From Bacteriovoracaceae bacterium (lineage in GTDB: Bacteria; Bdellovibrionota; Bacteriovoracia; Bacteriovoracales; Bacteriovoracaceae): DNA of 64,000 nt. Where the stretch lies: positions 1-64,000 of the forward strand of contig JABIHA010000035.1 of the NCBI GenBank assembly GCA_018649885.1, in the 5' to 3' direction. A model generated the notes under the pieces. It searched no databases and had not been told where the DNA came from. It worked only from the letters and a program-made list of their open reading frames with translations. This document shows positions 13,933 to 55,511 of the stretch, one piece after another. Each line of letters opens with the position of its first letter. Position 1 is the first letter of the stretch. The translations under genes and the position numbers were made by a program.

Positions 13933-14910
13933 ATGAATATTTTTATAACAGGTGCAACCGGATTTGTCGGAAGAAGTATTATGAAAGGGCTCAAAGCTTG
14001 CGGGCACAATGTTGCTATTCTTGCACTGCCTAATGAAAAAGTCACTGGTCTAAATGATATTGAAATCCATAGAGGTGATATCACTAAAAAAGAAACTCTA
14101 ATCGGAGTTATGACAGGGCAAGATGTTGTGATTCATCTTGCGGGTGCAGTTGGCTATGGTCAGGAAATGGATCTTTGCCGAAAAATCAATGTGGACGGCA
14201 CTGTTAATATGGCCTTAGAAGCACATAATTGTGGAGTCAAAAGATTTATTCACATGAGTAGTGTTGCTGTTTATGGCAGGCAAAACAAAGGTGCTATTAG
14301 TGAGAATACTCCTTTTCTCAAAATTGGAGATCCTTATGGTGATACCAAAATTGATGCTGAAGTTGAGCTCAATTCTATTGAAAAGAGAACTAAAATGAAT
14401 GTCACATATGTAAGACCAACAGTTATTTTTGGTCCAGGCGATGACAAATTTTTACCCAAGCTTTTAGAGAATATACAAAGTGGCAATGCAAAAATCATTG
14501 GGGATGGGAAAAATCGAGTAGATCTAATTCATATTGATGATGTGGTTAGATTCTTTGTTGCCATTCTAGAAAACCCAAAAAGTTACGGCCAGGCCTACAA
14601 TTTAACTAATTCGGAAAATGGCAACTGGGATCAGTTCTTAGAAACTATGGGGCAGGAGTTGAAATTAAACTCCAATGTGGGACATATTCCGTATCCTGTT
14701 GCCTACGCTGTTGCAGGAGTAATGGAGCTTGTTTCTCATTTTACAAAAAAAGCACCTAAACTTACTCGTTACGCTGTTCGAGTTGTAGGAAAGCACTATA
14801 ACTTCCGCACCGATAAGGCCCAGAAAGATCTTGGCTTTATGGCAAAAATTGGCATTAAAGAGGGAATTGTTCCACTAATTGCAAAGTATCAAAGAGGTAT
14901 CCAATGTTAA
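13933..14910 (+). CDS. extended SDR, NAD-dependent epimerase/dehydratase (3-beta-HSD/OleD-like)
   Basis: TGATGFVG, HLAG, HMSSVAVYG, YGDTK, RPTVIFGPGD; LTRYAV...KAQKDLG tail. Confidence 0.9.
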   Translation: MNIFITGATGFVGRSIMKGLKACGHNVAILALPNEKVTGLNDIEIHRGDITKKETLIGVMTGQDVVIHLAGAVGYGQEMDLCRKINVDGTVNMALEAHNCGVKRFIHMSSVAVYGRQNKGAISENTPFLKIGDPYGDTKIDAEVELNSIEKRTKMNVTYVRPTVIFGPGDDKFLPKLLENIQSGNAKIIGDGKNRVDLIHIDDVVRFFVAILENPKSYGQAYNLTNSENGNWDQFLETMGQELKLNSNVGHIPYPVAYAVAGVMELVSHFTKKAPKLTRYAVRVVGKHYNFRTDKAQKDLGFMAKIGIKEGIVPLIAKYQRGIQC

Positions 14911-17468
14911 TGAAAGTAAGACCAATCCTTGGGGTTAAATCTAGTCGGCTTAAAAGTCTTAGACGTCAACTACTTGATGCTCCTTATGAGTTGTGCACTC
15001 AAAAATCATACTGGATTACAGATTATTTCAAAAGCAATACACATCTATTTCAAAAGAAATCTGTAATAAGGGATATTGTCGAAAAAGTTCATTACAGGTC
15101 TTATAAGAAATCATTATTCTCTCTGGCAAAAGGGCAGGAGTTAGATCAAAAAAAGATTGCTATCAATCACAAACTTGGACAGTTTTATGCCAAAAACTAC
15201 CATGAACATTTGACTAGCTCGCTGCAAGTTACATACGCCAAGGCCTTGGCCCATACATTAGAAAATATGGAGCTTAAAGTTTATCCAGATGAGTTAATTG
15301 TGGGGAATTGTTCTTCTAAAAGAATTGGGGCACCTGTTCACACTGATTTGTCGGGAGTTCTTTTAGTGCCCGAGCTAGCAGACTTAACAACAAGGAAAGT
15401 AAACCCTATTGAGATGTCTAGTCAGCAAAAAGAACAATTAGAAGATGAAATTTTTCCATTTTGGTTTAATAAGTCAGTTCTATTTCATACTTCACAAACT
15501 TTTGATGATCCAGCACTGCTAAACGATATGCTTAGTGGTGGATATTTTATACTTACCCAAATTGCTGGGATTTCTCACTTAACACCCAACTACCAAAAAG
15601 TTATTGAGGTAGGTTTTTTAGGGATTAAACAGGAAATTAAAACAGAAATCGAAAAGCTGAAAAAGCTTGAACAAAGTGATGAGAACGTTACTAAATTACA
15701 ATTTTTAAAGTCGTTAGTGATTTCAACTGACGCTGCAATTGATTACGGTGTGAGGTGGAGCAAGAAATTGTCAGAGCTTGCAATGGTAGAAAAAGATGAA
15801 AAAAGAAAAAAAGAATTGTGCGAATTGGCCGAAATGTTTAAAACCATTCCTGCTAAACCTGCAGAGTCTTTTCATCAGGCCTTGCAATCCATGATGATTA
15901 CTCATGTGATAGTACATCAAGAAAGTTTTCAACATGGAGTATCTTTTGGTCGTTTGGATCAATTCCTTTATTCTTACTATAAAAAAGATATTGAGAGTGG
16001 AAAAATAGATGATGAAAAAGTTGTAGAGCTTATTGGTTGTTTTCTAGGCAAAGCAGCTGAGCTTTTACCTCTCTTTTTTGAAAGGGCGACAGAATATTTT
16101 AGTGGGCTTTCATCAGCTTCTGGCATAACTCTTGGGGGCAGCACTCCTGATAGTGATGATGCCGTCAATGAGCTGTCTTATCTGATTTTAAGTGCCTATG
16201 ACCAAATGAGATTAAGACAGCCCAATATTCATGTCAGAGTCAATGAGAACACATCTCGTGATTTTTTGAATTACTCATTTGAAATTTTAAAAAAAGGAGG
16301 AGGAATACCGGCCTTTTTTAATGATCCCAAAATTATCACATCCCTGATAAATCAAAATTACTCTAGTGAGGACGCTCATGCTTACTCAGTTGTTGGTTGT
16401 AGTGAATGGGGAGTTCCCAGTAAAAGTTTTCCGGCAGCAGGAGCTGGTTTCATTAATTTGGCCTTTGCCTTAAATATGACCCTTGGAACCTATCGTGGAG
16501 ATTTTCTACAAGATCGCCGGGGAAATAAGATTTCTGATAGCACAAAATCCATTGAGGATGTGCTCCAGCTTTTCGAACTAAACCTCAAAGAGCTCTTAGA
16601 TGTGGCGGTCACTGGAAATAACTGTATTGAAAGTGTACATGCAAATTATCGTCCCACTCCTTTTTTGTCAGCGATTGTTGAAGGTCCTATTCAAAAGGCA
16701 AAAGATCTCAATGCTGGTGGCAGTATCTATAATAGTTCAGGTTTTCAAGCGGTGGGACTGGCCGATGTGGCCAATTCGCTGATGGCAATACAGCAAGTTG
16801 TATTTACCCAAAAGAAATTAACACTTTCAGAGTTTGTAGCGGTTATTGATTCCAATTTCAAAGACTATGACTCTTTGAGATCTTATATATTAAATAGAGT
16901 TCCCAAATACGGACAAGACAATCTAGAAGTAGATCAATTTTCACAAAAAGTGAGTGAGATTTATAGCAGACTTGTAAGTGAGCTGACTCATCAAAGGGGA
17001 GGGCGCTACCTTCCTGGGTTTTGGACAATGACAACACATCAAGGTTTTGGGAAGAGAACTGCTGCCCTACCATCAGGCCGCTTGCATGGTGAGTGTTTAT
17101 CCAATGGGATTTCACCTACTCTTGGAAGTGAGAAATATGGGCCTACTGCTGCGCTTAATTCGGCCAGTAATGTGGACTCTGATTTGGCCGGAAATGGCAT
17201 GATACTCAATCAAAAAGTAGACAAGCAAAATATTTCAGGTGAGCGCGGTAATGTGATTTTAGAAGGACTTTTAAGAGGTCATTTTAATGGTGGAGGGATA
17301 CAAGTACAATTTAATATCCTTGACCAGGATACGCTACTTAAGGCCCGCAAAAATCCAGATCTCTACAAAGACTTAGTTGTGAGAATTTCAGGTTACTCTG
17401 CTTATTTCAATGATCTAACAGAAGATATGAAAGATGAGCTGATTTTGAGGAATACTCATCATGTCTAG
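14904..17468 (+). CDS. glycyl radical enzyme of unknown substrate (PFL2/eliminase-like superfamily)
   Basis: VVRISGYSAYF glycyl motif (Gly830), single-Cys loop VVGCSEWG (Cys499), SFGRLDQFLY, RLRQPN. Confidence 0.95.
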   Translation: MLMKVRPILGVKSSRLKSLRRQLLDAPYELCTQKSYWITDYFKSNTHLFQKKSVIRDIVEKVHYRSYKKSLFSLAKGQELDQKKIAINHKLGQFYAKNYHEHLTSSLQVTYAKALAHTLENMELKVYPDELIVGNCSSKRIGAPVHTDLSGVLLVPELADLTTRKVNPIEMSSQQKEQLEDEIFPFWFNKSVLFHTSQTFDDPALLNDMLSGGYFILTQIAGISHLTPNYQKVIEVGFLGIKQEIKTEIEKLKKLEQSDENVTKLQFLKSLVISTDAAIDYGVRWSKKLSELAMVEKDEKRKKELCELAEMFKTIPAKPAESFHQALQSMMITHVIVHQESFQHGVSFGRLDQFLYSYYKKDIESGKIDDEKVVELIGCFLGKAAELLPLFFERATEYFSGLSSASGITLGGSTPDSDDAVNELSYLILSAYDQMRLRQPNIHVRVNENTSRDFLNYSFEILKKGGGIPAFFNDPKIITSLINQNYSSEDAHAYSVVGCSEWGVPSKSFPAAGAGFINLAFALNMTLGTYRGDFLQDRRGNKISDSTKSIEDVLQLFELNLKELLDVAVTGNNCIESVHANYRPTPFLSAIVEGPIQKAKDLNAGGSIYNSSGFQAVGLADVANSLMAIQQVVFTQKKLTLSEFVAVIDSNFKDYDSLRSYILNRVPKYGQDNLEVDQFSQKVSEIYSRLVSELTHQRGGRYLPGFWTMTTHQGFGKRTAALPSGRLHGECLSNGISPTLGSEKYGPTAALNSASNVDSDLAGNGMILNQKVDKQNISGERGNVILEGLLRGHFNGGGIQVQFNILDQDTLLKARKNPDLYKDLVVRISGYSAYFNDLTEDMKDELILRNTHHV

Positions 17469-18354
17469 AACTCTCGCGAACATTTTTGATATTCAAAGGT
17501 TTTCTATTCACGATGGGCAGGGAATACGAACAACTGTATTTTTTAAAGGTTGTAGTTTGAATTGTCAGTGGTGCCAAAATCCAGAGTCTAAGGCGCCAAA
17601 AAGTCAGCTCTACTTTGACCAAGCTAAGTGCCAGGATTGTAAAAGTTGTATTGGTTCTTGCCCTAGTGGTGCTATTTCAAATGGTGCCGGAAAAAGTGAT
17701 GTTGATTTTAATATGTGTAATGATTGCGGACAATGCGTAGAAAGTTGTCCCAATCTAGCTTTTGAGCTCTTGGGAAAAAGCTATACTGAAGATGAGCTAC
17801 TTGATAGTTGCCTCAAAGACCAAAGCTTTTATGAAAGCTCTGGTGGAGGAGTTACTCTCTCTGGTGGTGAAGCGGTTCTCCAGTCTGAATTTCTTCAAGG
17901 ATTTCTTCCTAAGTTAAAAGAAGCAGGAGTTCACATTTTACTTGAAACTGCTGGGAATTATCCCTTTCGCCTGCTTTCTCCATTACTGCCTTATATCTCA
18001 CATATATACATTGATATGAAATTTTATAGTGAAGACAAGCATTTAAAATACACTGGAAGTAGCAATCAGCTGATACTTGAAAATTTGGGAAAGCTAGTTG
18101 AGATGGACTTTCCTTTGACAGTGAGAGTACCGGGAATAAACGGGATTAATACTGACATAGATGAAAACGAAAAAATAGCAAGTCATTTAAACTCTCTGGG
18201 AATATCAGAGGTTGAACTTTTAAAATACAATTCACTTTGGGAATCAAAAATATCACGGATTGATACGGCTCAAAAACAATTAAATATTTCTAACAATGAG
18301 GACTATCTCCATGAACTTAAAAAGTGCTACAGCAAATATGACATTCGGGCCTAG
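17461..18354 (+). CDS. glycyl radical activating enzyme (radical SAM) with 2x[4Fe-4S] ferredoxin insert
   Basis: HDGQGIRTTVFFKGCSLNCQWCQNPE; CQDCKSCIGSCP and CNDCGQCVESCP; GVTLSGGE. Confidence 0.95.
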   Translation: MSRTLANIFDIQRFSIHDGQGIRTTVFFKGCSLNCQWCQNPESKAPKSQLYFDQAKCQDCKSCIGSCPSGAISNGAGKSDVDFNMCNDCGQCVESCPNLAFELLGKSYTEDELLDSCLKDQSFYESSGGGVTLSGGEAVLQSEFLQGFLPKLKEAGVHILLETAGNYPFRLLSPLLPYISHIYIDMKFYSEDKHLKYTGSSNQLILENLGKLVEMDFPLTVRVPGINGINTDIDENEKIASHLNSLGISEVELLKYNSLWESKISRIDTAQKQLNISNNEDYLHELKKCYSKYDIRA

Positions 18355-30481: not shown

Positions 30482-30669
30482 TTAATATCCCCCGAGTTCA
30501 GAGCTTTTATGTATAGAATGTGATCAACATCATAAAAATAGACTAGTACAGGAAAGAAATCAAGTATTTCCCTGATAGACTGTCAAATATACACAGTTAA
30601 CTAGCTAAAATTTTAGCAAAGGAGCGGTTTTTTGAGAAAACACTCATGGTTTAAATTTAGAGTACGATA

Positions 30670-30701
30670 TATAATGTAACCACAATCAAGCGTTACGTAA
30701 C
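30670..30701 (+). promoter_or_regulatory. -10 box plus palindromic operator upstream of the KfrA-FliG gene
   Basis: TATAAT 30670-30675, GTAAC half-site 30676-30680, perfect palindrome GTTACGTAAC 30692-30701. Confidence 0.6.
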
Positions 30702-30712
30702 AGGGGGGGCTT

Positions 30713-31231
30713 ATGGCAAGAAGAGGAATTGAATACTCCGAGGTTGAAACGGCTTGCAGTCAAATTTGGGAAACCGGTGGCACACCATCGGCCAAAAAAG
30801 TGCGCGAGCATTTGGGGAGAGGCTCTCTTACAACCATTTCAAAATATCTAAATATGTGGAAAAAGAGAAATGATTCGGGCAGTGACCAGGCCCAGTCCAT
30901 AGACCAATTAATAGAAAATTGTAACAGCGTTGATCTTAGGGTTTTGTCTGATTTTGTAGACCGCGAAACTCCTCAAGTGGCCGCTATTTTACTTTCTAAG
31001 TTAGCTGAGTTGCAGTCAGTAGCAGTTCTGAAGAAAATGGATCTGCCTAAGAGAGAAGATGTTCTCAGTCGCATTGAAAACTTGGGCTTTGTCTCTCCTT
31101 CAATATTAAAAATTGTGTTTCAGATACTAGACAGTGAATTGGCCGGATTTTCTCAGGTTAGTGAAGATGCCCACAAGATTGCTTCAAGGGCGAAGAGTTT
31201 GAGAGAGAAATTAAAACAAGGGGGGGAGTAG
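30713..31231 (+). CDS. KfrA_N DNA-binding domain fused to a FliG middle domain
   Basis: MARRGIEYSEVETAC...PSAKKVREHLGRGSLTTISKYLNMW (KfrA_N pattern); VLSDFVDRETPQVAAILLSKL...DVLSRIENLGFVSPSIL (FliG-M, EHPQ to ETPQ). Confidence 0.85.
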   Translation: MARRGIEYSEVETACSQIWETGGTPSAKKVREHLGRGSLTTISKYLNMWKKRNDSGSDQAQSIDQLIENCNSVDLRVLSDFVDRETPQVAAILLSKLAELQSVAVLKKMDLPKREDVLSRIENLGFVSPSILKIVFQILDSELAGFSQVSEDAHKIASRAKSLREKLKQGGE

Positions 31232-31857
31232 TGAGCGTTCATAATTTTGAATACTACAAACAAAAGGGAAAGTCCTTAGATGAAATAAATTTCTATTTGA
31301 TGGATATTAAAGATCTTTCATTAACTGAGCTTATTGAAGAAAGATTTATTAGGCTTTTTAGAGTCAGTATATCAAATCTTTTGAGAAATGTTGTGGATCT
31401 CAAGGTTAGCTCAAAATCAAAAACCTCCCTTGAAGAGTTCAAACAAAATTCTAGTGGCACTCATTTCTATCTCATCGGAAAAAGTGAAGTTCTGAAAGGA
31501 CCCATGATATTTCAATTTGAAACGAGCTTGGGACGAGGGATCATCCACCACCTTCTCGGTGGTGAGAATATTACTTTCAAAGAGTGTGATACTGAATTTA
31601 CTCAAATTGAACTTAGTGTGATGAAAGTTGTTTATGAAAAACTACTAGTAGATTTTAATGAGGCTTGGTCTCCCATCAAAAAATTAGATGTTGGCCACCT
31701 TCGGTTTGAAATTAATTCCAAGTTTATAGGTATCGTCAGTGATGATGAGCCTTGCCTAGAACTGGAAATTGAACTCAATTTTTGTCAAAGCAGCGGTAAA
31801 ATGCGAATCCTGATTCCATTTCAAACTCTATATCCTATCAGAGAGCGATTGTTTTAG
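31231..31857 (+). CDS. stand-alone FliM middle (CheC-like) domain protein, no SpoA domain
   Basis: ERFIRLFRVSISNLLR, HLLGG, EFTQIEL, EAWSPI, RFEINSKFIGIV, GKMRILIPFQTLYPIRERL; TAGTG overlap with upstream gene. Confidence 0.85.
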   Translation: MSVHNFEYYKQKGKSLDEINFYLMDIKDLSLTELIEERFIRLFRVSISNLLRNVVDLKVSSKSKTSLEEFKQNSSGTHFYLIGKSEVLKGPMIFQFETSLGRGIIHHLLGGENITFKECDTEFTQIELSVMKVVYEKLLVDFNEAWSPIKKLDVGHLRFEINSKFIGIVSDDEPCLELEIELNFCQSSGKMRILIPFQTLYPIRERLF

Positions 31858-31868
31858 TGAAAATGCTT

Positions 31869-34550
31869 TTACTGAGTGACGGTTTGTCGGTCGAGTTTTT
31901 GCATCACTTTTTTGCGAATATAATCACTTCCCCAGATCAGTGGAATTCCAAGCCATGCCAAGGCGTACATAGAGTAGGGCACTCGACCAGTGCCCAGTAC
32001 TCGTTGTAATGGCGGCCAGTAGAGAACGGCCCATGAAAAAACTATTTGAATGATGATTCCAGTGAGCAGAAGTTTATTTTTGAATAGGCCCATATCAAGG
32101 CCTGATTTGTAATGAAACCTTCGACCGATTAAATTGCCAATTTGCATCAGTAAAATTGTTGTCAAGGCCATGCCGGTTGCTGAATGGTATAGTGGGCTGT
32201 CTCCGGTTAAGCGCATTCCCCACTGCCATCCACCTGCTTTTAAGATCATAAAAAAGAGAGTGAAAGACCATAGACCTTCAAGTAAACCTAAGAATAAATA
32301 GCTATGAACCACCAGCCTTAAACTAAGTAGCCCTTCCTTAGAACTGCGAGGCGGTTTCTTCATCTCACCCGGGTCTGGCGGCTCTTGGCCCAAGGCCATT
32401 GATGGAATAATATCTGTCCCCAAATCAATTGATAAGATTTGAATGACAGTTAGTGCTAGGGGAATAGGAAAAAGAATATAGAGTAGGTAGGGGAGAATTT
32501 CAGGGCCATTACTGACAAGTACATAGTTAGTAAATTTTTTGATATTGGCAAAAACTGTTCTTCCCTCTTCTATGCCGGCCACAATTGAGGCCAAGTTGTC
32601 ATCTAGCAAGATAATTTGGGCCGACTCCCTGGCGACATCGGTTCCATCTTTGCCCATGGCAATACCTACATCGGCTGCTTTTAAGGCCGGAGCATCATTG
32701 ACTCCGTCACCGGTCATGGCCACAACCTTATCTAGTATTTTTAGAGCAGAAATAATTTTCATCTTCTGTTCAGGAGTACTCCTGGCAAAAACTCGAACTC
32801 CTGATTTCAGATTTTCAATTAATTGGACTTCACTCATAGTATCAAGTTGATGACCCGTTAGAATAAGTGAATCTCCACAATCAGAATCTAAAATCCCACA
32901 TTTTTTTGCAACAGCTACCGCTGTATCGGGGTGATCACCAGTAATGAGGATAAAGTCAATTCCAGCAACCTTGGCCTGAGCAATGGATTTCTCAACTCCA
33001 TCACGTAATGGATCTTCAAGGCCCATGAATCCAAGAAAGATTAAATCTTTTTCCATTTGATCTTGATTATTAAAGTCATCTTTAGCGCTGCATTCACGGT
33101 AGGCAAAACTGATAACTCTCATTCCCTGCTTTGCTGTTTCTTTAAGTATTTTATCAAATATTTGATAATCACTTTCACTAAGCTCAGATAACTGTCCTGC
33201 ACAATTTTTGTATTTTAGAAGTGGGCGAACATCTTCCCAAGCACCTTTGACAGAAAAATAAGTCTTTCCCCTGATTTTTCCAATTCCAGCAGCTCTTCTT
33301 TTTTCAGTATCAAAAGGAAAAATTTTGATAGAGGGAAAAGGGGCATCCTTTGAGCTTTCTTGAAGACTTTGCCACTTTTTATTTAAGGCCACATCTAAGG
33401 GGTCACCTGTGATTTTTTGTCCACCATCTTGGAGGTGAACATCACAAGACAGTAGTGCCATTTCAAGCACTTCATTTTGATCAATGCCCTCAATACTGTT
33501 TCCACTGTGGTCAAGAATTTGGGCCACTCTTAGTTTGTTTTGAGTTATTGTTCCCGTTTTATCGGTACATATGACCTCAACACTTCCAAGGGCCTCGACG
33601 GCCTCCATTCCTTTTACTAGAACTTGTCGCTTGGCCATACGTTTAGCACCCATGGCCAAGGCCAGGGTAAATGTGGGAAGTAGCCCTTCTGGTACATTGG
33701 CAACAATAATGCCCATCATAAATACTAAGTTCACCCATAAGGGGCGGCCGGTGAACATGCCATAGATGAAAAAAACAAGTCCCATACTCACTGCAATGGC
33801 CGTTAAAATGCGAACCATGTGTGCTGTTTCTTTTTCAAGAGGTGATGGGGGTCTTGTCATGGTTTGCGATAGCTGAGCAATTTTTCCAAATTCGGTGCGC
33901 AGGCCTGTGGCAAAAACTACTGCTTTACCACTTCCTTTGAGAATACTACAACCTGCAAAGATTATATTATTTGAATCTTGTAGTCGCTTTGAGCAGGGGG
34001 CAGAAATGGCCCTAATAGCAAGAGATTCGCCGGTAAGTGAGGCGTTATTTAAAACCAAATCATTACTCTGTATTATGCGCGCATCGGCTGGTACCCTGAG
34101 ACCTTCACTTACTTGCAGGATATCTCCGGGAACGATTTCTTCAACATCGATTTCACTCTCAATACCTTCTCGAATGACATTGACTGTTAGAGGAATAAAT
34201 TTTTCTAAGACCTCCATCATTTGTTCCGCCCGGTATTCTTGAAAAAAGGCGAAAAGAGCATTGAGAATACTAACACCAAATAGGGCGTACCCTAATATAT
34301 CCATGCCCTCATCACTTTTAATTGAATGGGCAAAAAAACAGATTCCTCCTGAAACAAATAATAAGATAGTGAAAAAATTAGTAAATTGTTTAAAAAGAAC
34401 CTTAAGCATCACATATTTATTTTTTACTTTTAATGTATTTTTTCCCACTTCCCTTAGACGTTCGCTGACTTCACCAGAGCTGAGTCCATCCGGTCTGCTC
34501 CCTAAGGACCTGTAGACAAGAGGTATTTGGACTCCTTGAATTTGTTTCAT
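31869..34550 (-). CDS. cation-transporting P-type ATPase, P2C (Na,K/H,K)-like
   Basis: LTGES, VANVPEGL, DKTGT, TGDGVND, SNGPEI, ILSIDLGTD. Confidence 0.95.
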   Translation of the reverse strand: MKQIQGVQIPLVYRSLGSRPDGLSSGEVSERLREVGKNTLKVKNKYVMLKVLFKQFTNFFTILLFVSGGICFFAHSIKSDEGMDILGYALFGVSILNALFAFFQEYRAEQMMEVLEKFIPLTVNVIREGIESEIDVEEIVPGDILQVSEGLRVPADARIIQSNDLVLNNASLTGESLAIRAISAPCSKRLQDSNNIIFAGCSILKGSGKAVVFATGLRTEFGKIAQLSQTMTRPPSPLEKETAHMVRILTAIAVSMGLVFFIYGMFTGRPLWVNLVFMMGIIVANVPEGLLPTFTLALAMGAKRMAKRQVLVKGMEAVEALGSVEVICTDKTGTITQNKLRVAQILDHSGNSIEGIDQNEVLEMALLSCDVHLQDGGQKITGDPLDVALNKKWQSLQESSKDAPFPSIKIFPFDTEKRRAAGIGKIRGKTYFSVKGAWEDVRPLLKYKNCAGQLSELSESDYQIFDKILKETAKQGMRVISFAYRECSAKDDFNNQDQMEKDLIFLGFMGLEDPLRDGVEKSIAQAKVAGIDFILITGDHPDTAVAVAKKCGILDSDCGDSLILTGHQLDTMSEVQLIENLKSGVRVFARSTPEQKMKIISALKILDKVVAMTGDGVNDAPALKAADVGIAMGKDGTDVARESAQIILLDDNLASIVAGIEEGRTVFANIKKFTNYVLVSNGPEILPYLLYILFPIPLALTVIQILSIDLGTDIIPSMALGQEPPDPGEMKKPPRSSKEGLLSLRLVVHSYLFLGLLEGLWSFTLFFMILKAGGWQWGMRLTGDSPLYHSATGMALTTILLMQIGNLIGRRFHYKSGLDMGLFKNKLLLTGIIIQIVFSWAVLYWPPLQRVLGTGRVPYSMYALAWLGIPLIWGSDYIRKKVMQKLDRQTVTQ

Positions 34551-35392
34551 TTATCACTCGTATGATATAAGGCCACATCACAATTACTTCGTCTCAAAAT
34601 TTGCTCAAAAAGATTACCGAAAAAAGAATGGCGGTTTAGATAAGAGTCAGGAGCTCCCATGAAAATTAAATCAGAATGCCATTTATTAGCAAAGAGAATA
34701 ACTTCTTTTGATAAGCTATTTGACAGCTGAGCATGAGTTTTTATTTGATGATCCCCTAAATCTAAGGAAGCTTTCATAAAACTAGACACCTCTTCTAAAT
34801 CTTGAAGAGACTTTTTCCTAAAACGTTCGGCCCTTTTAGGTGATAAATTTCGAAAAAAAAGAGAAAATAATTTTTTTATGTGAAGTAATCTCAGCTCACT
34901 AATGCCAGGGGCAAATCCTTTCAAAATAGAAGATGCTTGTTGCAAGTGCAGGTGATTTTTGGCAGTAGGGATTAAGATATTTTTGGCCACGCCCAGAAGA
35001 CCTGGACGTGTTACACGGAAAATAATTGTGGAAAAGGACTTGTTTTTGATCAACAGCTTTTCAGCAATAGAGCCAGATAAAAAGCCTTTTAAATGACCAT
35101 GAGATCTGGCTCCGGCGATTAAAAAGCATTGAGAATTTTGTGGGAGATGGTTGATAATAGAGCTGCTGACATTGCCTTTAAGAGGAAGAATGCTTACAAA
35201 TGGTTCAAGATTTCGCTGTTCAACTTCATCCACAAGTGCTTTTAGTTTTTCATCAAATTTTGAGCGCGACATTTTCCCGTCTTCTACATAGAGAATGTGA
35301 AGTTCTTTAACACCAATATTTGTGGCCATATTCATAGCATAGCGGGCAACCCAGTCACTGTGGAGTGAGCCATCGTAGGCCAAATAAATCAT
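34547..35392 (-). CDS. tandem universal stress protein (USP)
   Basis: IYLAYDGS, GFLSGSIAEKLL, SDLIFMG...FFGNLFEQILRRSNCDV; overlaps the ATPase start. Confidence 0.85.
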   Translation of the reverse strand: MIYLAYDGSLHSDWVARYAMNMATNIGVKELHILYVEDGKMSRSKFDEKLKALVDEVEQRNLEPFVSILPLKGNVSSSIINHLPQNSQCFLIAGARSHGHLKGFLSGSIAEKLLIKNKSFSTIIFRVTRPGLLGVAKNILIPTAKNHLHLQQASSILKGFAPGISELRLLHIKKLFSLFFRNLSPKRAERFRKKSLQDLEEVSSFMKASLDLGDHQIKTHAQLSNSLSKEVILFANKWHSDLIFMGAPDSYLNRHSFFGNLFEQILRRSNCDVALYHTSDK

Positions 35393-35583
35393 TTGAAACA
35401 TACCTCCTAAGGTTTGCTCATATTCATTTTTCATCGCTTTGTATGGAGAATTATAACATTTTTGGTATAAGAGAGTTTTAAATTTTGTTAAGGAAATATA
35501 AGCTGGGCACCATCATCTTTTTTTAGTTGAGTCTAAAACTTTAGTACTTTAGTACTTTAGAAGGAACACTGCAGGGGAGTAAA

Positions 35584-47996: not shown

Positions 47997-49844
47997 TTAT
48001 ATACTCCAAAACATAAAAAGCTGAACAGCTTTGTTGGATTCTTTTAATAGTCTAAGATTTAGCTCATATAAAGCAATTAGATCATGGTGACCCAGTGACG
48101 CCTGGCCTGAATTGATGGCCACATTGATAGTTTTTTTGCAATTTCCCCAAATATCGTAAACAGTACTTAGCTGTTTGATCAGCTCTGGGTCATGGGTTCC
48201 AGGAAGACCTTGATCACTATCGCCCTTTAGCAGTCCATTTAAAGATCTTTCAAAAAGAGTCATTGAGTTAGCTAGCATCCTGCGATTGTTTTCTGGTTCA
48301 ATTCCGCCTGTGATTAATAATAGCTCTTTGGTTATTTTCTGGCTCAGCATTCGTTGGCGACCTGAGATATTTAGGATATTGGCCCCATCACTTTTTTCAC
48401 CGTTTCCGACACATTTGTTTGAATAGTCTTGAATTAAATTAACGGCCTTATTCATATTATCTAGGATCAGTGGGTTTTGGCGGGCCAGCTCTCGAAGTAG
48501 AGTAGAGTTTATTTGACCTTTCTCTGCACCGTTAATGAGTGGAAGAAATTCACGCCAAAGTCTTTTGACATATCTAAGCTGCTCTGTGATTGCTGGCTCT
48601 TTGATTTTAGTTAATCTAAGTTCCTTACTTCCATACAAAAGACCATCTAAAACCTGGCCAAACTCCTGTTTCGAGATCTTGAGATCACTCAGGGCATCTT
48701 CTTTGTTCACATTGCAGGATATAAATAAAACATCTTTGGAGATTTTCTGGATTAGCATTCGCTGTCTGCCCGCTAAATCAATAATAGATTTTACTTCGTG
48801 CCTAAATGATCGCCCTCGACTAGTGACACTAAACTGCCTAATATCTTCGTCAATCGCTTTGCACGACTGGGCCAACTGTTTTGAGTTTTCAGCACCAGAA
48901 AGAGAAATACTGCAGTTTTCGTGAATGCTTTTATCTAGTTGACCTATGGCCTTCATAACCTCACTTATACCAATTTGCTGTTCTTTTGAAGAAGCGGCAA
49001 TGCTATTGATATTGCCGTATACTTTTTGAATATTTTCAACGATAAAACCGAAGACCCCTTGTGCGTGGAGTGCTTTTTCGTGTCCATCATCAATTTTGAC
49101 TTTAGTTTCGCTAATAATTTCTTGAATCTTATTTTGGCCATTTTTAATATGAGCATCTATGTCTTTTGCTGCCTTGGATGTATTGTCAGCAAGTGCGTTC
49201 ATCTCTTTTGATACTACAGAAAATGACTTTCCAAACTCCCCAGCTCTTTCAGCTTCAATATTGGCGTTACATGCCAATATTTTGGATTCAAAAGCAATCT
49301 TGCTTATAATCTCCGAGTTATTTGATATATTGGCAATGACTTCTAATATTTGCTCAAGTGCTTCATTGGAATTTTGGATCACTTTCATGGAATCCATCAG
49401 CTCTTCCATCATCTTTTGACCTTCAATGGTCTTTTCATTGACTTGTTTAGTAAGAGACTCGGAGCTTTGGGTGAATTCAGCATTTTTACTAACAGTTTGG
49501 GTAATTTGTTCCATGGCATTTACACAACTAAGAGAGGCCTCTTGTTGCTGTTCAGAGCTTTGGAGAATGCCGAAGTTAAGATCAGATAGATCCTTTGCAA
49601 TATGCATTAGCCCTTTCATTCCATTACCTAGTTTACTTGAAACAAGACTTAAATAGTTTGATAGTTTTTTCACTGAAAAAATCACCGGAAGAATGAATAT
49701 AAAATAAACTGCCAAAATGGCCAAGTGGGGAACTTTGTACCAATTGCTGTCAAAATGTACTCCCTCACTTTGAAGGCTCAATTGAAGCAAAATAAAAATA
49801 GCTGGGAAAGCAGTGAAAAAAATAATTTTTTTGTCAAATCTCAT
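47997..49844 (-). CDS. methyl-accepting chemotaxis protein with two C-terminal NarX/PilJ-type sensor domains
   Basis: 2 N-terminal TM; LACNANIEAERAGEFGKSFSVV tip; IDLAGRQRMLIQKISK and LNISGRQRMLSQKITK. Confidence 0.9.
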   Translation of the reverse strand: MRFDKKIIFFTAFPAIFILLQLSLQSEGVHFDSNWYKVPHLAILAVYFIFILPVIFSVKKLSNYLSLVSSKLGNGMKGLMHIAKDLSDLNFGILQSSEQQQEASLSCVNAMEQITQTVSKNAEFTQSSESLTKQVNEKTIEGQKMMEELMDSMKVIQNSNEALEQILEVIANISNNSEIISKIAFESKILACNANIEAERAGEFGKSFSVVSKEMNALADNTSKAAKDIDAHIKNGQNKIQEIISETKVKIDDGHEKALHAQGVFGFIVENIQKVYGNINSIAASSKEQQIGISEVMKAIGQLDKSIHENCSISLSGAENSKQLAQSCKAIDEDIRQFSVTSRGRSFRHEVKSIIDLAGRQRMLIQKISKDVLFISCNVNKEDALSDLKISKQEFGQVLDGLLYGSKELRLTKIKEPAITEQLRYVKRLWREFLPLINGAEKGQINSTLLRELARQNPLILDNMNKAVNLIQDYSNKCVGNGEKSDGANILNISGRQRMLSQKITKELLLITGGIEPENNRRMLANSMTLFERSLNGLLKGDSDQGLPGTHDPELIKQLSTVYDIWGNCKKTINVAINSGQASLGHHDLIALYELNLRLLKESNKAVQLFMFWSI

Positions 49845-50073
49845 TTGGCCAACTTCAAAATAAACTAATGTAAAAATGATTTGTATCTTTAAACAATGAT
49901 AGCAGCATACAAGTATTATTTACAAGTAAATGAAATACCTTGTATTTTGTGGACAAATATTTTGCTTTGTTTTTTAAATATCAATACATTTTATTTCATC
50001 TAGGGTGGGAGTGTGATCTAGGTCATAAAAAATTGTTGTGCACCATTTTTAACTCATTACACTGAAACTCCCT

Positions 50074-50100
50074 TAATAGTTTCAGCAAAATAGCCGAAAA
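50074..50100 (+). promoter_or_regulatory. sigma28/FliA-like promoter of the che operon
   Basis: TAATAGTT-N11-GCCGAAAA, 25 nt before cheA. Confidence 0.5.
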
Positions 50101-50125
50101 TAAGTCAGAGAAGAAGGAGTAGGGA

Positions 50126-52036
50126 TTGAGTACTGACGATGAATTTTTAAAAGAAATTCAAGAAGATTTTATCAGTGAGGCCAAGGATCTTGTAGAGAGA
50201 ACTGAATCTTGCTTTCTCAACTTTGAGAAAAATCCCACAGACCAAAATTTAATGTCTGAAATTCTGAGACTTTTTCATAACCTTAAAGGCTCAAGTAAGG
50301 CTGTTGGCTTTGACCATCTTGCGAATTTTTCTCATCAGGCCGAGGATTTTCTCGTTGCTGTGAGAGATGGTGGTATTGAAAGTGGTTCAAGTGTTGCGGA
50401 TATTTTACTGAAGATAAATGACACTTTAGGAAGTTCTGTGCAAATGCTTGAAGAAGGGGAAGATCCTTCAGATATATTTGTGCCAGTCCTTGCTGATATT
50501 GCTAAGGTTAATTCAGGTGAGATTGAAGAGAATGAAACACAAAAAGAATCAACTCTTGTTTTTCATACACCAAAAAGTGAAGACTTTGACGAAGAGATCT
50601 CTTGGGATGAGGGCGCAAGTGTAAGTGATGAAATCCCACAGGTGAAAGAGGATACTCCTTCAATGAGTGATGATGAAGCCCTGGCCCTATTGCAAGAAAT
50701 GCAGCAAGAATCAACTGAAACAGTAGAGTCAATTGGCTCAATCAATTTTGAGAGTGAGGATCCAAAAATGGACGAACTACCTCCGGCCCAGGCTTCCATT
50801 GCAAATGATATCGTAAGAGAAGTTAAGCCAGTAGAGACAGAGAAAAAGGCTGCTCCTAAAGCGGCGGAACCAATAAAAGTTGGACTTGATAAAATTGATA
50901 AGATTCTCAATTCATTTGGAGAACAAGTTATTTTGCAGTCAAAATTGGCCCATTTAGTTAAAGGGGTTAGTGATGTAATCCCCAGTGAAATTTTGAGTGT
51001 TATGTCACAACTTGAAAAAATCACATCAGATCTCCAGGCCACTTCAATGAATTTGAGAATGGTATGTATTAAAACTGTTTTTAACAGAATGGAGCGAGTA
51101 GCAAGAGAAACTGCAAAGGCCACAGGTAAAAAAATTGTCTTTACTCAAGTTGGTGCTGATTCAGAGTTGGATAAAACCATAGTTGATTCACTAATTGACC
51201 CATTGACTCACATGGTTCGAAATGCCATTGATCATGGAATTGAAACTTCAGAAGAGAGAATTAAAGCAGGAAAAAATGAAGAAGGTGAAGTTATTCTTGG
51301 TGCTAGAAGGCAGGGAGGATTTTTCGTTATAGAGGTTAAGGATAACGGTAAGGGTCTTAGTCGAGAGCTTATTGCAAAGAAGGCCATAGAAAAAGGTCTC
51401 ATTGCCAGTGATGAAGGAATGGATGATAGTGAAATATATAATTTAATTTTTAAAAATGGATTTTCAACAAAAGATGTTGCCACAGATGTTTCAGGTAGAG
51501 GTGTGGGAATGGATGTTGTACGAGAGATGTTCAAGAAACTTAAAGGTACCTGTGAGATTCAATCAATTCTTGGAGAGGGCAGTGTCTTTACTGTAAAACT
51601 TCCTCTTTCGCTCGCTTTATTTCAAGGAACAGTAATTGAAATTAATGGTGAGAAATATATTATACCTAATTCAGATTTTAAAGAGACAGGTGTGGTCGAT
51701 TCTGATGGACTCGAGCAAACTTCTTCTGGTGACAATGTTCTTAAATATAAAGATAGATTGATGCCTGCTATTAGTTTGAATTCCTATTTCCCAATTAAGG
51801 GAGGAGAAAAAAAAGAAGGCACTTCTTCAATGGTTGCTGTGGTAAATGTGGCCAGGAAAGAATATGCCTTGATTTTTGATGAGATATTATCTCAAGAAAG
51901 AGTAGTGCTTAAGAAACTCGATGTTGATGTTGAACAGGTCAAAGGAGTTTCTGGGGGAACGATATTAGGTGACGGTAAAGTCGCTTTGATTTTAGAATTG
52001 AGTGAAATTGTTGGACAATTTTACGAAACGGGTTAG
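50126..52036 (+). CDS. cheA: chemotaxis histidine kinase CheA
   Basis: FHNLKGSS Hpt, HMVRNAIDHG, DNGKG, SGRGVGMDVV, CheW-like tail. Confidence 0.97.
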   Translation: MSTDDEFLKEIQEDFISEAKDLVERTESCFLNFEKNPTDQNLMSEILRLFHNLKGSSKAVGFDHLANFSHQAEDFLVAVRDGGIESGSSVADILLKINDTLGSSVQMLEEGEDPSDIFVPVLADIAKVNSGEIEENETQKESTLVFHTPKSEDFDEEISWDEGASVSDEIPQVKEDTPSMSDDEALALLQEMQQESTETVESIGSINFESEDPKMDELPPAQASIANDIVREVKPVETEKKAAPKAAEPIKVGLDKIDKILNSFGEQVILQSKLAHLVKGVSDVIPSEILSVMSQLEKITSDLQATSMNLRMVCIKTVFNRMERVARETAKATGKKIVFTQVGADSELDKTIVDSLIDPLTHMVRNAIDHGIETSEERIKAGKNEEGEVILGARRQGGFFVIEVKDNGKGLSRELIAKKAIEKGLIASDEGMDDSEIYNLIFKNGFSTKDVATDVSGRGVGMDVVREMFKKLKGTCEIQSILGEGSVFTVKLPLSLALFQGTVIEINGEKYIIPNSDFKETGVVDSDGLEQTSSGDNVLKYKDRLMPAISLNSYFPIKGGEKKEGTSSMVAVVNVARKEYALIFDEILSQERVVLKKLDVDVEQVKGVSGGTILGDGKVALILELSEIVGQFYETG

Positions 52037-52043
52037 GTGAGAA

Positions 52044-52538
52044 ATGATTGAAGATGAGAAATCACAGGAGAAAGGTTTAGGGAAGAAATACCTCAACTTT
52101 TCAATTGGCGAGAGAGTCTATGCTGTACCTCTTCTAAAAGTAAAAGAAGTTGTCTCAGATTTTGAAATTACTCCAGTACCAAAAGTTCCATCTTGGTTTA
52201 GGGGATTAATCAATCTAAGAGGAGGAATCCTCTCAATTATAGATCTCAACACCAAATTAAATCAAAAAGAAACTGATCTCAGCGTGAAAGAAACGTGTGT
52301 GGTCATTTTTGAAATAGAAGAAGTCGTTATAGGCGTACTTGTTGATGAGGTGATTAAAGTATCAAATTATTTTCCAGATCAACTTTCTTCTGGAGATGTG
52401 ATTAAGAGTTCTAATAGCAATAAATTTATAGAAAGTGTGATTAAAGAAGAAGATGGAAGCCTAACCTTTTTATTAGAGGTTGAAAGTGCTTTGGGAATAG
52501 AAGAACTACAAATATTAAAAGAAAAATTGGCCAGCTAG
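52044..52538 (+). CDS. cheW: chemotaxis coupling protein CheW
   Basis: ITPVPKVP..FRGLINLRG, GVLVDEV. Confidence 0.95.
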   Translation: MIEDEKSQEKGLGKKYLNFSIGERVYAVPLLKVKEVVSDFEITPVPKVPSWFRGLINLRGGILSIIDLNTKLNQKETDLSVKETCVVIFEIEEVVIGVLVDEVIKVSNYFPDQLSSGDVIKSSNSNKFIESVIKEEDGSLTFLLEVESALGIEELQILKEKLAS

Positions 52539-52547
52539 GAGATAATA

Positions 52548-54654: not shown

Positions 54655-55511
54655 TAAAACCCTCTAAAGATATTCCCCCAATTTTAGAAAGGGAATTTAG
54701 AGATCTATCCAAATATATCGTTGAAATAACGGGCGTAAAGCTTGTGACCGGCAAGGAGAATTTGTTGGAGTCGAGGCTTTCCAGGAGGCTTGGCCAACTT
54801 GGTCTTAATAGTTGGAGGGAGTATATAAGCTATCTTGAAAGTGGCATCGATGAAAATGAAAAGCAAGTTTTAATTAATTTAATCACCACCAATAAAACTC
54901 ATTTCTTCAGAGAATTGCCTCATTTTGATTATTTAAAAAAAGAATATATCCCAGAAAGATTCAAAGATTTCCACGATAAGGAAAAAACAGTTTTCATTTG
55001 GTCCGCAGCTTCATCTCGTGGGCATGAGGCCTATAGTATGGCAATGCTCCTTGATGATGAAATTTGTAAAAGAAGCTTACAGCACAATTTAAATTACAAA
55101 ATTCTGGGAACAGACATCAATACCAATGTGATAAACCATTCACAAAGAGGAGTTTATCCCGGCATTGAAGTTGAAGGGGAAGTTCCTACCGAGATGGTTC
55201 AAAGGTATTTTTTAAAAGGCGAGGGATCAAATGCGGGGAAGTACTTAATCTCAAAGAATTTAGCGAGTAATATTAAATTTAGGTACCACAACCTTGTGGA
55301 CCCTCATTCTATGCTCAATGTAGAGTTTGATGTCATTTTAGTCAGAAATGTTCTGATTTACTTTGATCGTAAGACTATTGATATTGTAATTAAAAAAGTG
55401 TGTGCTCATTTAAAAAGTGGAGGCCTTCTTATTCTTGGCCATTCAGAGCATCTAGAAAGTGTTCCTAAGGAATTAACCTATATGGGATCATCAATTTATA
55501 AAAAGACATGA
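54639..55511 (+). CDS. cheR: chemotaxis methyltransferase CheR
   Basis: [40 protein letters not shown]. Confidence 0.95.

Follow-up and report, generated by a model that had tools for sequence, protein, structure and literature searches.

What do the two sides of the flagellar rotor joint do when they are found away from the rotor and next to a DNA-binding domain? The contact between the middle domains of FliG and FliM (FliG_M and FliM_M) is among the best-studied bacterial protein interfaces and is viewed as a structural joint of the rotor. In the 64,000-nucleotide stretch of DNA analysed here (the window), which comes from a marine bacterium of predatory type, both sides of this joint have been cut out of the motor and remain side by side as two translationally coupled genes, with a head of DNA-binding type and plasmid origin, and the hosts of the pair, a Bacteriovoracaceae-type lineage, have also kept their normal motor. 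Motor parts appear here to have been turned into a gene regulator of a new kind. An earlier sequence-only reading of this DNA did not recognise the architecture as a described one, and literature searches at the level of listings found no published description of it. The two genes, referred to here as A and B, are laid out as follows.

30713..31231, plus strand: gene A, 172 aa, with a KfrA_N-type HTH head, then a FliG middle domain, then a single long helix at the C-terminus (open reading frame, Pfam).
30734..30895 (aa 8-61), plus strand: KfrA_N domain of A, a tri-helical HTH (Pfam PF11740).
30941..31153 (aa 77-147), plus strand: FliG middle domain of A (Pfam PF14841), with ETPQ at nt 30965-30976 and R120.
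31231..31857, plus strand: gene B, 208 aa, a FliM middle domain alone, with an LLGGEN loop at aa 108-113 (nt 31552-31569) (open reading frame, Pfam).

Both domains that the sequence-only reading had assigned to A were recovered by Pfam above the respective cut-offs: KfrA_N (PF11740) over aa 8-61 (E 8.1e-13, 49.5 bits, cut-off 26.1) and FliG_M (PF14841) over aa 77-147 (E 2e-13, 50.8 bits, cut-off 25). The two are matched together in 27/27 members of the A family. The head is 35-40% identical to the heads of KfrA-like proteins of 210-450 aa from Methylococcales, one of them plasmid-borne. The AF2 model of A (pLDDT 86.4) has helices at residues 8-20, 27-34, 39-53, 55-72, 75-122 and 129-170; a fold search with the head returned weak matches (Z <= 6.1), mostly to HTH DNA-binding domains, and the modelled head is consistent with a generic HTH, the fold matches naming no family. 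On the FliG side, the A-family profile matches FliG 3hjl_A (E 3.1e-25), and the modelled domain matches 4fq0_D (Z 11.8, rmsd 1.3 over 80 residues) and 8umd_B (Z 11.8). A feature query of the ESM Atlas gave no usable match, the structural neighbours being ordinary FliG and KfrA_N clusters.

Compared with FliG of the flagellar C-ring, A lacks FliG_N and FliG_C and has the DNA-binding-type head in addition. Its alignment to the 344-aa FliG of the same genome is confined to about residues 113-200 and, together with Pfam, revealed in A neither the N-terminal FliF-binding domain nor the C-terminal torque-helix domain; a weak FliG_N match (22.7 bits) falls below the cut-off and overlaps the M domain. 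The uninterrupted coiled-coil tail of KfrA-type proteins, some 250-300 residues long, is also absent, and what follows the head is FliG_M and one helix of ~42 residues. The HTH residues are the best-conserved part of A, and the invariant columns of the family are those of the HTH and of the EHPQ/R positions; the head carries the invariant stretch G-x-G-S-L-T-T-I-S-K-Y, and R31, G37, S38 and T41 are invariant head positions. The EHPQ site reads EHPQ in 33/33 canonical FliG of the phylum and in 23/27 A-family members, where the position of H86 holds H (23 of 27), L (three) or T (one). The single T belongs to the window copy, in which ETPQ (aa 85-88) does replace EHPQ, as had been read from the sequence, while E85, P87, Q88 and R120 of the EHPQR signature are present.

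Gene B is a FliM middle domain only. Its match to Pfam FliM (PF02154) covers aa 30-207 and profile positions 15-192 of 192 (E 6.2e-32, 111.5 bits), FliM and nothing else is matched in 17/17 members of the B family, and neither B nor any of these 17 matches FliMN_C/SpoA (PF01052), which the canonical FliM matches carry. Relative to FliM of the C-ring, B is thus without the CheY-binding peptide and the FliN-like domain. Against the 335-aa FliM of its own genome, to which it is 34% identical and with which it has the stretch ERFIRLFRVS in common, it is missing about 100 residues at the C-terminus and, at the N-terminus, the LSQDEVDALL peptide, which is of the CheY-P-binding LSQxEIDALL type. The LLGG motif has been retained at aa 108-111, as previously read; within the GGxG loop G110 and G111 are invariant (17/17), and the third G is kept in 15/17 members and replaced by N in the window's B. 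Small stand-alone proteins with a FliM_M-like fold exist in CheC, CheX and FliY, relatives of the FliM middle domain, but the only match of B to the CheC/CheX/FliY models (CheX_Thtogales, E 0.064, 13.1 bits) lies far below the cut-off of 280, and no phosphatase role is indicated. The notion that KfrA_N and FliG/FliM profiles would find nothing in this pair is contradicted by matches that are all above the Pfam cut-offs.

The genes are also joined at their boundary. The TAGTG overlap reported earlier consists of 1 nt common to the stop of A and the GTG start of B, within GAGTAGTGAGC; a Shine-Dalgarno-like run, GGGGGGAG, precedes this GTG. D17, N20 and F21, which are encoded ahead of the first internal ATG, are conserved, and this supports GTG as the start. 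A terminator scan of the locus found none, and matches in a promoter scan were no commoner than in shuffles.

Canonical fliG and fliM are both found outside the A/B locus in the same genome, a draft of 151 contigs, with fliG on contig C99 between fliF and fliH. A/B, in contrast to the C-ring genes, stand outside the flagellar operon: inspection of the neighbours and the 64-kb window showed no fliF-fliH-type context for A, and the earlier statement that no flagellar genes are nearby was upheld, with no flagellar structural gene among the 13 ORFs within 6 kb or the 39 further ORFs of the window. The GC content of the cassette is that of its surroundings.

An assembly chimera, or a decaying duplicate of fliG and fliM, could in principle produce such a locus. 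The 151-contig draft would suit this explanation, as would the window copy being the most divergent of its family (ETPQ for EHPQ, GGEN for GGxG and a very long branch; the window's A also has no GG near its C-terminus). We reject it as scarcely credible, because pieces identical to the window occur in metagenomes and because the same architecture recurs at 10 loci and across about 22 clusters. The identical contig pieces come from four independent marine metagenome runs of four studies, each of which leaves some bins of the stretch uncovered; the fusion of head to FliG_M is bridged by X7 record 8, X8 record 11 and X5 record 1, and the A/B junction by X7 record 9. Decay is further opposed by two intact frames and by a dN of about 0.2 with saturated dS. 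Between loci L043 and L075, A has a dN of 0.20 and B one of 0.24, and dN/dS cannot be computed since dS is saturated.

The pair recurs in other genomes. A lies directly upstream of B in 10/10 distinct loci (the window, five genome loci found with A and four metagenome loci found starting from B), with a spacing of -14 to +10 nt, and an exhaustive search of 1.84 billion representatives recovered about 22 clusters. Exhaustive and profile searches were required to find relatives; word-seeded single-sequence searches gave one relative for A and only itself for B. The cassette was present in 1/24 and 2/100 of the same-family genomes sampled and in 0/300 genomes from the phylum's other families, almost all of them flagellated. 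Its named hosts are all Bacteriovoracaceae-type, the host genomes encountered are metagenome-assembled, canonical FliG is also present in 4/4 host genomes examined, and one cassette locus lies on a 3.72-Mb chromosome. The pair is a rare, conserved cassette and, judging from the sequences compared, it is maintained under selection. When the B family was placed in a tree with 53 canonical FliM, the latter formed one side of a branch (SH-aLRT 99). This tree has no root and very long branches lead to the B rows, so that neither origin nor timing can be read from it.

The patchy distribution would fit a mobile or selfish two-gene module, whether addiction-like, defence-like or a roaming accessory regulator, in which the flagellar ancestry is incidental. 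The chromosomal context differs in every locus (59 ORFs around six loci, no common family), the bicistronic layout is tight and apparently autoregulated, the head is of plasmid type, and evolution is fast, with B-family end branches measuring 1-10 where the median is 0.1 and both families evolving far faster than canonical FliM. We nevertheless hold such a module to be improbable: A/B have no match in PADLOC or PHROGs and no enzymatic or toxin-like domain, their GC content is like that of the surroundings, no integrase or transposase recurs beside them, and no full-length A was found on 72,556 plasmids, where 11 matches cover the head only and none extends over 80% or more of A. In one of the six loci a Phage_integrase-family ORF lies 2.3 kb from the cassette.

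How far do A and B still resemble the rotor joint from which their domains derive? The core contacts of A are those of canonical FliG (E85, P87, Q88, A91 and R120) and those of B are those of canonical FliM (G110, G111, R52, T124, I126 and E127), so that the EHPQ+R and GG cores are kept and the proposal that both interacting surfaces were retained is borne out. The pair has the same two folds, EHPQ plus Arg and GG loop as FliG_M-FliM_M in the C-ring (3SOH, 4FHR, 4FQ0; whole C-ring, 8UMD), and in a multimer model A and B were predicted to dock at an interface of FliG-FliM type using the same elements, residues 84-92 and 119-142 of A meeting residues 105-114 and 119-133 of B. The ipSAE of this model was 0.63 (runs 0.63, 0.62 and 0.66) compared with 0.01 for the best of three controls, a likeness that the predictor may have learned from related complexes already solved (3SOH, 4FHR, 4FQ0). 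That mark was reached by 116/157 solved complexes and 2/215 mismatched pairs. At least 86% of contacts were common between runs and partner pLDDT was at least 84, although the model adds little beyond residue conservation because complexes of relatives are solved and the alignments were unpaired.

Flanking the core, by contrast, contact positions differ systematically from those of canonical proteins of the same phylum, and do so on both sides. The residue before GG is F in 53/53 canonical FliM of the phylum but T, A, L, C or S in 17/17 B; position 89 is T in 33/33 canonical FliG but V or I in 23/27 of the A family; and position 119, L in 32/33 canonical FliG, is occupied by polar residues in the A family. 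From these comparisons, the A-B interface appears to have drifted from that of the host's canonical FliG-FliM pair. A charge swap between A134 and B133, suggested by the family consensus, found no support in the 10 cognate pairs and was rejected.

The retained core interface would permit contact with native FliM or FliG, and the cassette might accordingly be a motor-coupled regulator or checkpoint sensor, in which A's FliG_M or B also binds host FliM or FliG and in which free switch protein, or the assembly and shedding of the C-ring in the predatory cycle, sets how much A is available for DNA. Such a sensor would resemble in its logic FlgM with sigma-28 and FliX with FlbD, where a transcription factor is under a partner protein tied to the flagellum, although neither partner there is a domain of the switch complex, the factors controlled are a sigma factor in one case and an enhancer-binding protein in the other, and both pairs lie in flagellar regulons. 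The cores intact throughout the families, the canonical FliG present in all four host genomes examined and the resemblance of B to its own FliM, including the common ERFIRLFRVS, are in its favour; the diverged flanking contacts on both sides, the absence of flagellar genes next to the cassette (0/6 loci with neighbours inspected) and the rarity of the pair (1/24, 2/100 and 0/300 genomes), when a core checkpoint should be found more widely, lead us to consider it unlikely, while giving it real weight. Rather unlikely, in our estimation, is a read-out of the flagellar switch, in which A or A-B would swap partners with host FliM and FliG, so that assembly, remodelling or loss of the C-ring (e.g. 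when the predator stops swimming and enters its prey) leads to DNA binding by a FliG-domain transcription factor, with the EHPQR-GG interface serving as a signalling connector outside the motor.

The same surfaces could instead make A or B a modulator or decoy that competes with native FliG/FliM, thereby acting as a brake on the motor, biasing it or taking it apart, with a secondary role for the head that binds DNA. FliM is held on FliG by precisely these two domains, and the FliF-, stator-, CheY-P- and FliN-binding parts are missing from A and B, as they would be from a dominant-negative fragment. A decoy would need neither a cognate partner in the same operon nor promoter repeats, though, and the HTH head is the best-conserved part of A, present in 27/27 members; with the flanking interface positions diverged as well, we think this quite improbable.

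The region upstream of A suggests a target for the head. Its elements are listed here.

30663..30709, plus strand: candidate promoter and operator of the cassette, read from the sequence and presumed in function.
30663-30669, plus strand: TACGATA, element of the candidate promoter.
30670-30675, plus strand: TATAAT, -10-like hexamer, element of the candidate promoter.
30676-30680, plus strand: half-site GTAAC, element of the candidate operator.
30692-30701, plus strand: palindrome GTTACGTAAC, two half-sites, element of the candidate operator.
30703-30709, plus strand: G-run Shine-Dalgarno of A, a sequence reading.

The last 90 nt before A contain three GTAAY/RTTAC half-sites in the window and two to four in each other locus, giving 17 upstream of A in six loci compared with a control mean of 0.34 per region (61 regions); 0/100000 resamplings reached 17, for a motif that was chosen after the sequences had been viewed. 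Two loci fetched later, which are the only out-of-sample check, have three half-sites each in the same layout, so that half-sites lie upstream of A in 8/8 loci with upstream sequence. Support for the repeats comes from these counts against control regions and from the two later loci; when the presence of upstream 5- to 7-mers was compared, in an unbiased test, with mononucleotide shuffles, nothing significant emerged, and an inverted-repeat finder returned a perfect 14-nt repeat in L043 only. A site of L043 type has the form TGTAAT-N17-ATTACA. Across the genome the 10-nt palindrome GTTACGTAAC occurs twice, compared with about six expected from base composition, GTAAC-N8-18-GTTAC occurs 19 times and TGTAAY-N2-20-RTTACA 34 times; a scan with these three patterns yielded no usable regulon and identified no target genes beyond the cassette's own operon.

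The plasmid protein KfrA offers a precedent for such a layout. In the RA3 study, KfrA is a 345-aa autorepressor with its HTH at N29-R52 and a repeat-bearing tail, its operator consists of 9-nt TGTATTGTA repeats surrounding the -10, and the head alone (1-53) gives no repression without the helical tail (PMC7783346). KfrA is also described there, and in a second report, as forming complexes with a helical partner, KfrC, from the same plasmid (PMC7783346, PMC7821693). A has the KfrA_N HTH head, and by analogy with KfrA of broad-host-range plasmids (RA3, R751, RK2) and KfrC the autorepression layout matches the one that we propose for A. Unlike KfrA, A is chromosomal, is shorter (172 aa; 345 aa in RA3 KfrA), has no long coiled-coil tail and has a FliM domain rather than KfrC as its partner, and A/B have no link to partition genes of IncC/KorB type.

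KfrA is thought to help position plasmids, and a related role, with A on a chromosomal site and A-B on the polar C-ring so that DNA is anchored or positioned at the pole, would make use of both the head, with its origin in plasmid maintenance, and the motor-docking surfaces that have been kept. We regard a tether of this kind as very improbable, given the missing coiled-coil tail, an interface periphery diverged from the canonical one and, as the only enriched sites, those of the operon's own promoter; moreover, no ParA/ParB partition, replication or plasmid genes were found among the 59 neighbouring ORFs of six loci, and 0/11 plasmid matches extend beyond the head.

Among the three functions that the sequence-only reading had put forward, a regulator/partner pair fits best, since the HTH is the best-conserved part of A, half-sites lie in the promoter region of A in all loci and KfrA provides the paradigm; the DNA-to-motor tether and the decoy are weakened by the diverged flanking contacts, the rarity of the cassette and its never lying beside flagellar genes. 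We give about an even chance to A/B being an autoregulated HTH regulator with its cognate partner. The locus would then be a self-contained bicistronic operon, probably autoregulated, that encodes a small DNA-binding regulator, A, and a dedicated partner, B. The KfrA-type head of A would bind DNA, most likely at the GTAAY/RTTAC repeats that overlap the -10 region of its own promoter and extend just beyond it downstream, and the FliG middle domain with its one long helix may stand in for the long coiled-coil tail of KfrA. B would dock on A through C-ring-type surfaces, the EHPQ+R patch of A meeting the GG loop of B, and its binding may set the oligomeric state or availability of A, making B a co-repressor or anti-repressor. 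As the interface appears drifted from that of the host's canonical FliG-FliM, the module probably works mainly as a private pair.

A private regulator-partner pair would show cleanly, in nature, how the interface of a machine can be co-opted as a connector for regulation, and would amount to a natural experiment in the insulation of paralogous interfaces. Should the pair still communicate with the motor, flagellar state would be linked to gene expression in a new way. In both cases the hypothesis is open to a direct test using a 70-bp DNA fragment and two proteins that are small and soluble.

Elsewhere in the window, 16 kb downstream of A/B, lies a chemotaxis cluster that was absent from the sequence-only reading (MCP, CheA, CheW, MCP, CheR and CheD-REC-CheB, at 47997-57013).

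Two adjoining genes form the pair, an upstream gene, A, with a KfrA_N head and a FliG middle domain (FliG_M), and a downstream gene, B, with the FliM middle domain only:

30713-31231, forward strand: A, ORF of 172 aa
31231-31857, forward strand: B, ORF of 208 aa

The TAG stop of A and the GTG start of B share one base (TAGTG), and a GGGGGGAG run precedes the B start. The domains and overlap proposed in the sequence-only reading are borne out. Pfam places KfrA_N at residues 8-61 of A (49.5 bits) and FliG_M at residues 77-147 (50.8 bits), both over the curated cut-offs, and assigns FliM as the sole family in B (residues 30-207, profile positions 15-192 of 192, 111.5 bits). The NCBIfam fliG model was matched by A at positions 110-193 of 338 and fliM_switch by B at 47-226 of 320, in each case far below the full-length cut-off, as expected because both proteins are fragments. 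In the AlphaFold2 model of A, built from an alignment of 27 sequences (mean pLDDT 86.4), short helices at 8-20, 27-34 and 39-53 are followed by a linker helix, FliG_M helices at 75-122 and a single long helix at 129-170. Its residues 63-156 can be overlaid on FliG_M from the H. pylori FliG-FliM complex (4fq0_D; 80 residues at rmsd 1.3, Z 11.8) and likewise on the Salmonella C-ring (8umd_B; Z 11.8). The head modelled alone gave weak fold matches (Z ≤ 6.1), mostly to tri-helical DNA-binding domains (transposase, Myb-type, IdeR, TetR-type, sigma region 4).

Reading the pair as a chimera, a decaying duplicate or a pseudogene is contradicted by the physical evidence and by recurrence of the architecture across loci. 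At least 10 marine metagenome runs contain the stretch, each holding half or more of the sampled words, and contig pieces from four runs in four studies are identical to the window. Three of these pieces (30482-30978, 30631-30953 and 30851-31246) span the head-to-FliG_M fusion and one (31024-31331) spans the A/B junction. The GC content of the pair (0.35-0.41) is in line with the genome mean of 0.383.

As had been anticipated, the same genome carries ordinary switch genes on other contigs: a 344-aa FliG on C99, flanked by fliF and fliH, and a 335-aa FliM on C130 carrying a CheY-binding peptide (LSQDEVDALL) and, C-terminally, a FliN-like domain. The second half of A corresponds to roughly residues 113-200 of this FliG (31% identity), without FliG_N and FliG_C, and B to roughly residues 45-235 of this FliM (34% identity), with both ends absent. 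A third FliM-like gene of the genome (contig C124, L003:1202-1780, + strand) encodes a stand-alone FliM middle domain of 192 aa (PF02154, E 2.9e-10, above cut-off), in which the loop reads LLLGGKGAG. No A-like partner precedes this gene, and its end overlaps the beginning of a gene for a 301-aa multi-pass membrane protein; it matches the B profile weakly (7.5e-8; 23% identity to B) and groups with a B subclade in the tree, which may be a long-branch artefact.

An exhaustive phmmer search with A against 1.84 billion representatives returned 251 matches at E ≤ 1e-3, among them 22 full-length relatives (P0004-P0025; 163-205 aa, 28-37% identity) and one 64-aa fragment; the remainder matched the head alone (KfrA-like, ~300-350 aa) or FliG_M alone (canonical FliG). 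Both KfrA_N and FliG_M were matched in all 27 aligned A-family members, and FliM was the sole family in all 17 aligned members of the B family. The B-type profile search found 14 short proteins with FliM only (205-229 aa, 244-354 bits), separated by a score gap from canonical FliM with its FliN-like domain (≤ 204 bits). Full-length A was found in one of 24 genomes of the same family and, in a further search, in two of 100; 300 genomes from other families of the phylum yielded none and were matched only through canonical FliG. Six members (P0004, P0007, P0012, P0016, P0018 and P0024; 190-205 aa) are 20-35 residues longer, past the GG position, and weak FliG_C matches occur in 5 of the 27, only P0018 of the long sub-group being among them, so the point at which FliG is truncated varies within the A family. 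The nearest relatives of the A head are KfrA-like proteins of 210-452 aa (35-51% identity across ~60 residues), mostly from methanotroph genomes (loci L048-L074, Methylococcales and other MAGs, of which L062 is a Methylomicrobium lacus plasmid); a single MAG can hold several copies.

The expectation that the pair would recur elsewhere held, A lying directly 5' of B in all 10 distinct loci: six from genomes, and four more from metagenomes fetched by way of B, in two of which the contig stops within A. L077, a fifth locus from metagenomes, was left out of the count because it comes from the same organism as L043. Hosts of the genome loci outside the window are Bacteriovoracaceae (three), 'Bdellovibrio sp.' (one) and 'Oligoflexia bacterium' (one). 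A and B are spaced by -14 to +10 nt; wherever a gap separates them, an AGGAG-type site is present. Among 59 neighbouring ORFs at six loci, no family was common to the neighbours, and none was flagellar, as the sequence-only reading had noted for the window, or chemotactic, plasmid-like or phage-like, apart from one Phage_integrase-family ORF at one locus. Between loci L043 and L075, dN is 0.20 for A and 0.24 for B, with dS saturated; both genes are under purifying selection.

Across the A family the (near-)invariant columns are R31, G37, S38, T41, I42 and K44 of the helix-turn-helix and E85, P87, Q88, A91 and R120 of the FliG signature, called the 'EHPQR motif' in PMC6290876; B has R52, G110, G111, T124, I126 and E127 as in canonical FliM. 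When A(62-172) and B were modelled as a complex, ipSAE was 0.63 (runs 0.63, 0.62, 0.66), and the best of three controls scored 0.01; 116 of the 157 solved complexes reached that mark, as did 2 of the 215 mismatched pairs. Since complexes of this FliG_M-FliM_M kind are already solved (3SOH, 4FHR, 4FQ0), this score shows likeness only and may reflect structures that the model had learned, rather than showing that these copies bind. The runs had at least 86% of contacts in common (partner pLDDT ≥ 84), and the modelled contacts, A 84-92 and 119-142 with B 105-114 and 119-133, are those of the canonical EHPQR-to-GG-loop joint.

More informative than the score are the flanking contact positions predicted around the core; on both sides they depart from same-phylum canonical proteins. 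All 53 canonical FliM have F immediately before GG, where the 17 B have T, A, L, C or S; one residue earlier, F or Y stands in 50 of the 53 and L in 14 of the 17 B. On the other side, FliG T89 (33/33 canonical) gives way to V or I in 23 of the 27 A, L119 (32/33 canonical) is a polar residue in most A, and 17 of the 27 have I or V at the L131 position. From these modelled contacts we infer co-divergence of a private interface.

Upstream of A in the window, four elements occur in order:

directly 5' of TATAAT: TACGATA
30670-30675: TATAAT
30676-30680: GTAAC, followed by an 11-nt spacer
30692-30701: GTTACGTAAC, followed by a G-run and then ATG

At every locus that includes upstream sequence, GTAAY/RTTAC half-sites cluster in the last ~55 nt 5' of the A start codon. 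Over the final 90 nt they number 3, 2, 4, 2, 2 and 4 in the first six loci, a total of 17 that was reached in 0 of 100000 resamples from 61 control regions upstream of neighbouring ORFs (mean 0.34, maximum 2; genome background 0.29 per 90 nt). Because this motif was picked after looking at the sequences and an unbiased k-mer test of the upstream regions was not significant, two independent later loci were checked; both repeat this layout with 3 half-sites apiece, in the order CGATAAGAA-TGTAAT, 17-18 nt, AATTACA.

By analogy, the plasmid KfrA paradigm appears to fit the anatomy of the pair. In PMC7783346, KfrA of RA3 is reported to be an autorepressor with its helix-turn-helix at N29-R52; its operator, around the -10, is built of 9-nt TGTATTGTA repeats running in both orientations. 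[quoted passage not shown] According to PMC7821693, proteins of the KfrA type are autoregulators that also polymerise on their own operator. In A, unlike KfrA, the oligomerising tail is exchanged for FliG_M and the single long helix, and B, as the cognate FliM_M partner, would be made from the same transcript. In the simplest mechanism, A would repress its own operon at the repeats, B would dock on FliG_M of A and set its valency or availability, and the pair would be largely insulated from the motor; taken jointly, these steps stand, in our judgement, evenly poised. In the most interesting alternative, which we think improbable, native FliM or FliG would compete for the same surfaces and the cassette would sense C-ring state. 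The interpretation first proposed is supported in part: of its roles, a regulator with its partner is the best fit, and a tether from DNA to the motor or a decoy for native FliG and FliM is less likely, as is a selfish module.

The pair belongs to none of its parent families by their defining features: A lacks the tail and plasmid context of KfrA and the N and C domains of FliG, and B lacks the CheY peptide and FliN-like domain of FliM. It is a new architecture of one domain from each, built from known parts, rare yet conserved, with a putative function. No cluster of at least 50 members with the A architecture was among the ESM Atlas neighbours listed, and the literature covered yielded no paper on a KfrA-FliG/stand-alone FliM pair, although one may exist beyond it.

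Other genes in the window include a chemotaxis cluster (47997-57013), 16 kb 3' of the pair, comprising an MCP with PilJ-type N-terminal modules, CheA, CheW, a second MCP, CheR and a CheD-receiver-CheB fusion (501 aa); the five other scanned loci have no such cluster up to 6 kb from the pair. Two further groups are:

31869-35434, reverse strand: P-type cation ATPase (893 aa) and tandem universal-stress-protein gene (295 aa), 4-nt overlap
14904-18354, forward strand: glycyl-radical enzyme (PFL-like, 854 aa), radical-SAM activase and MFS transporter

The former genes converge on the B end, with 11 nt from the B stop to the ATPase stop, and the latter are preceded by a TetR regulator, a short-chain dehydrogenase and an epimerase.
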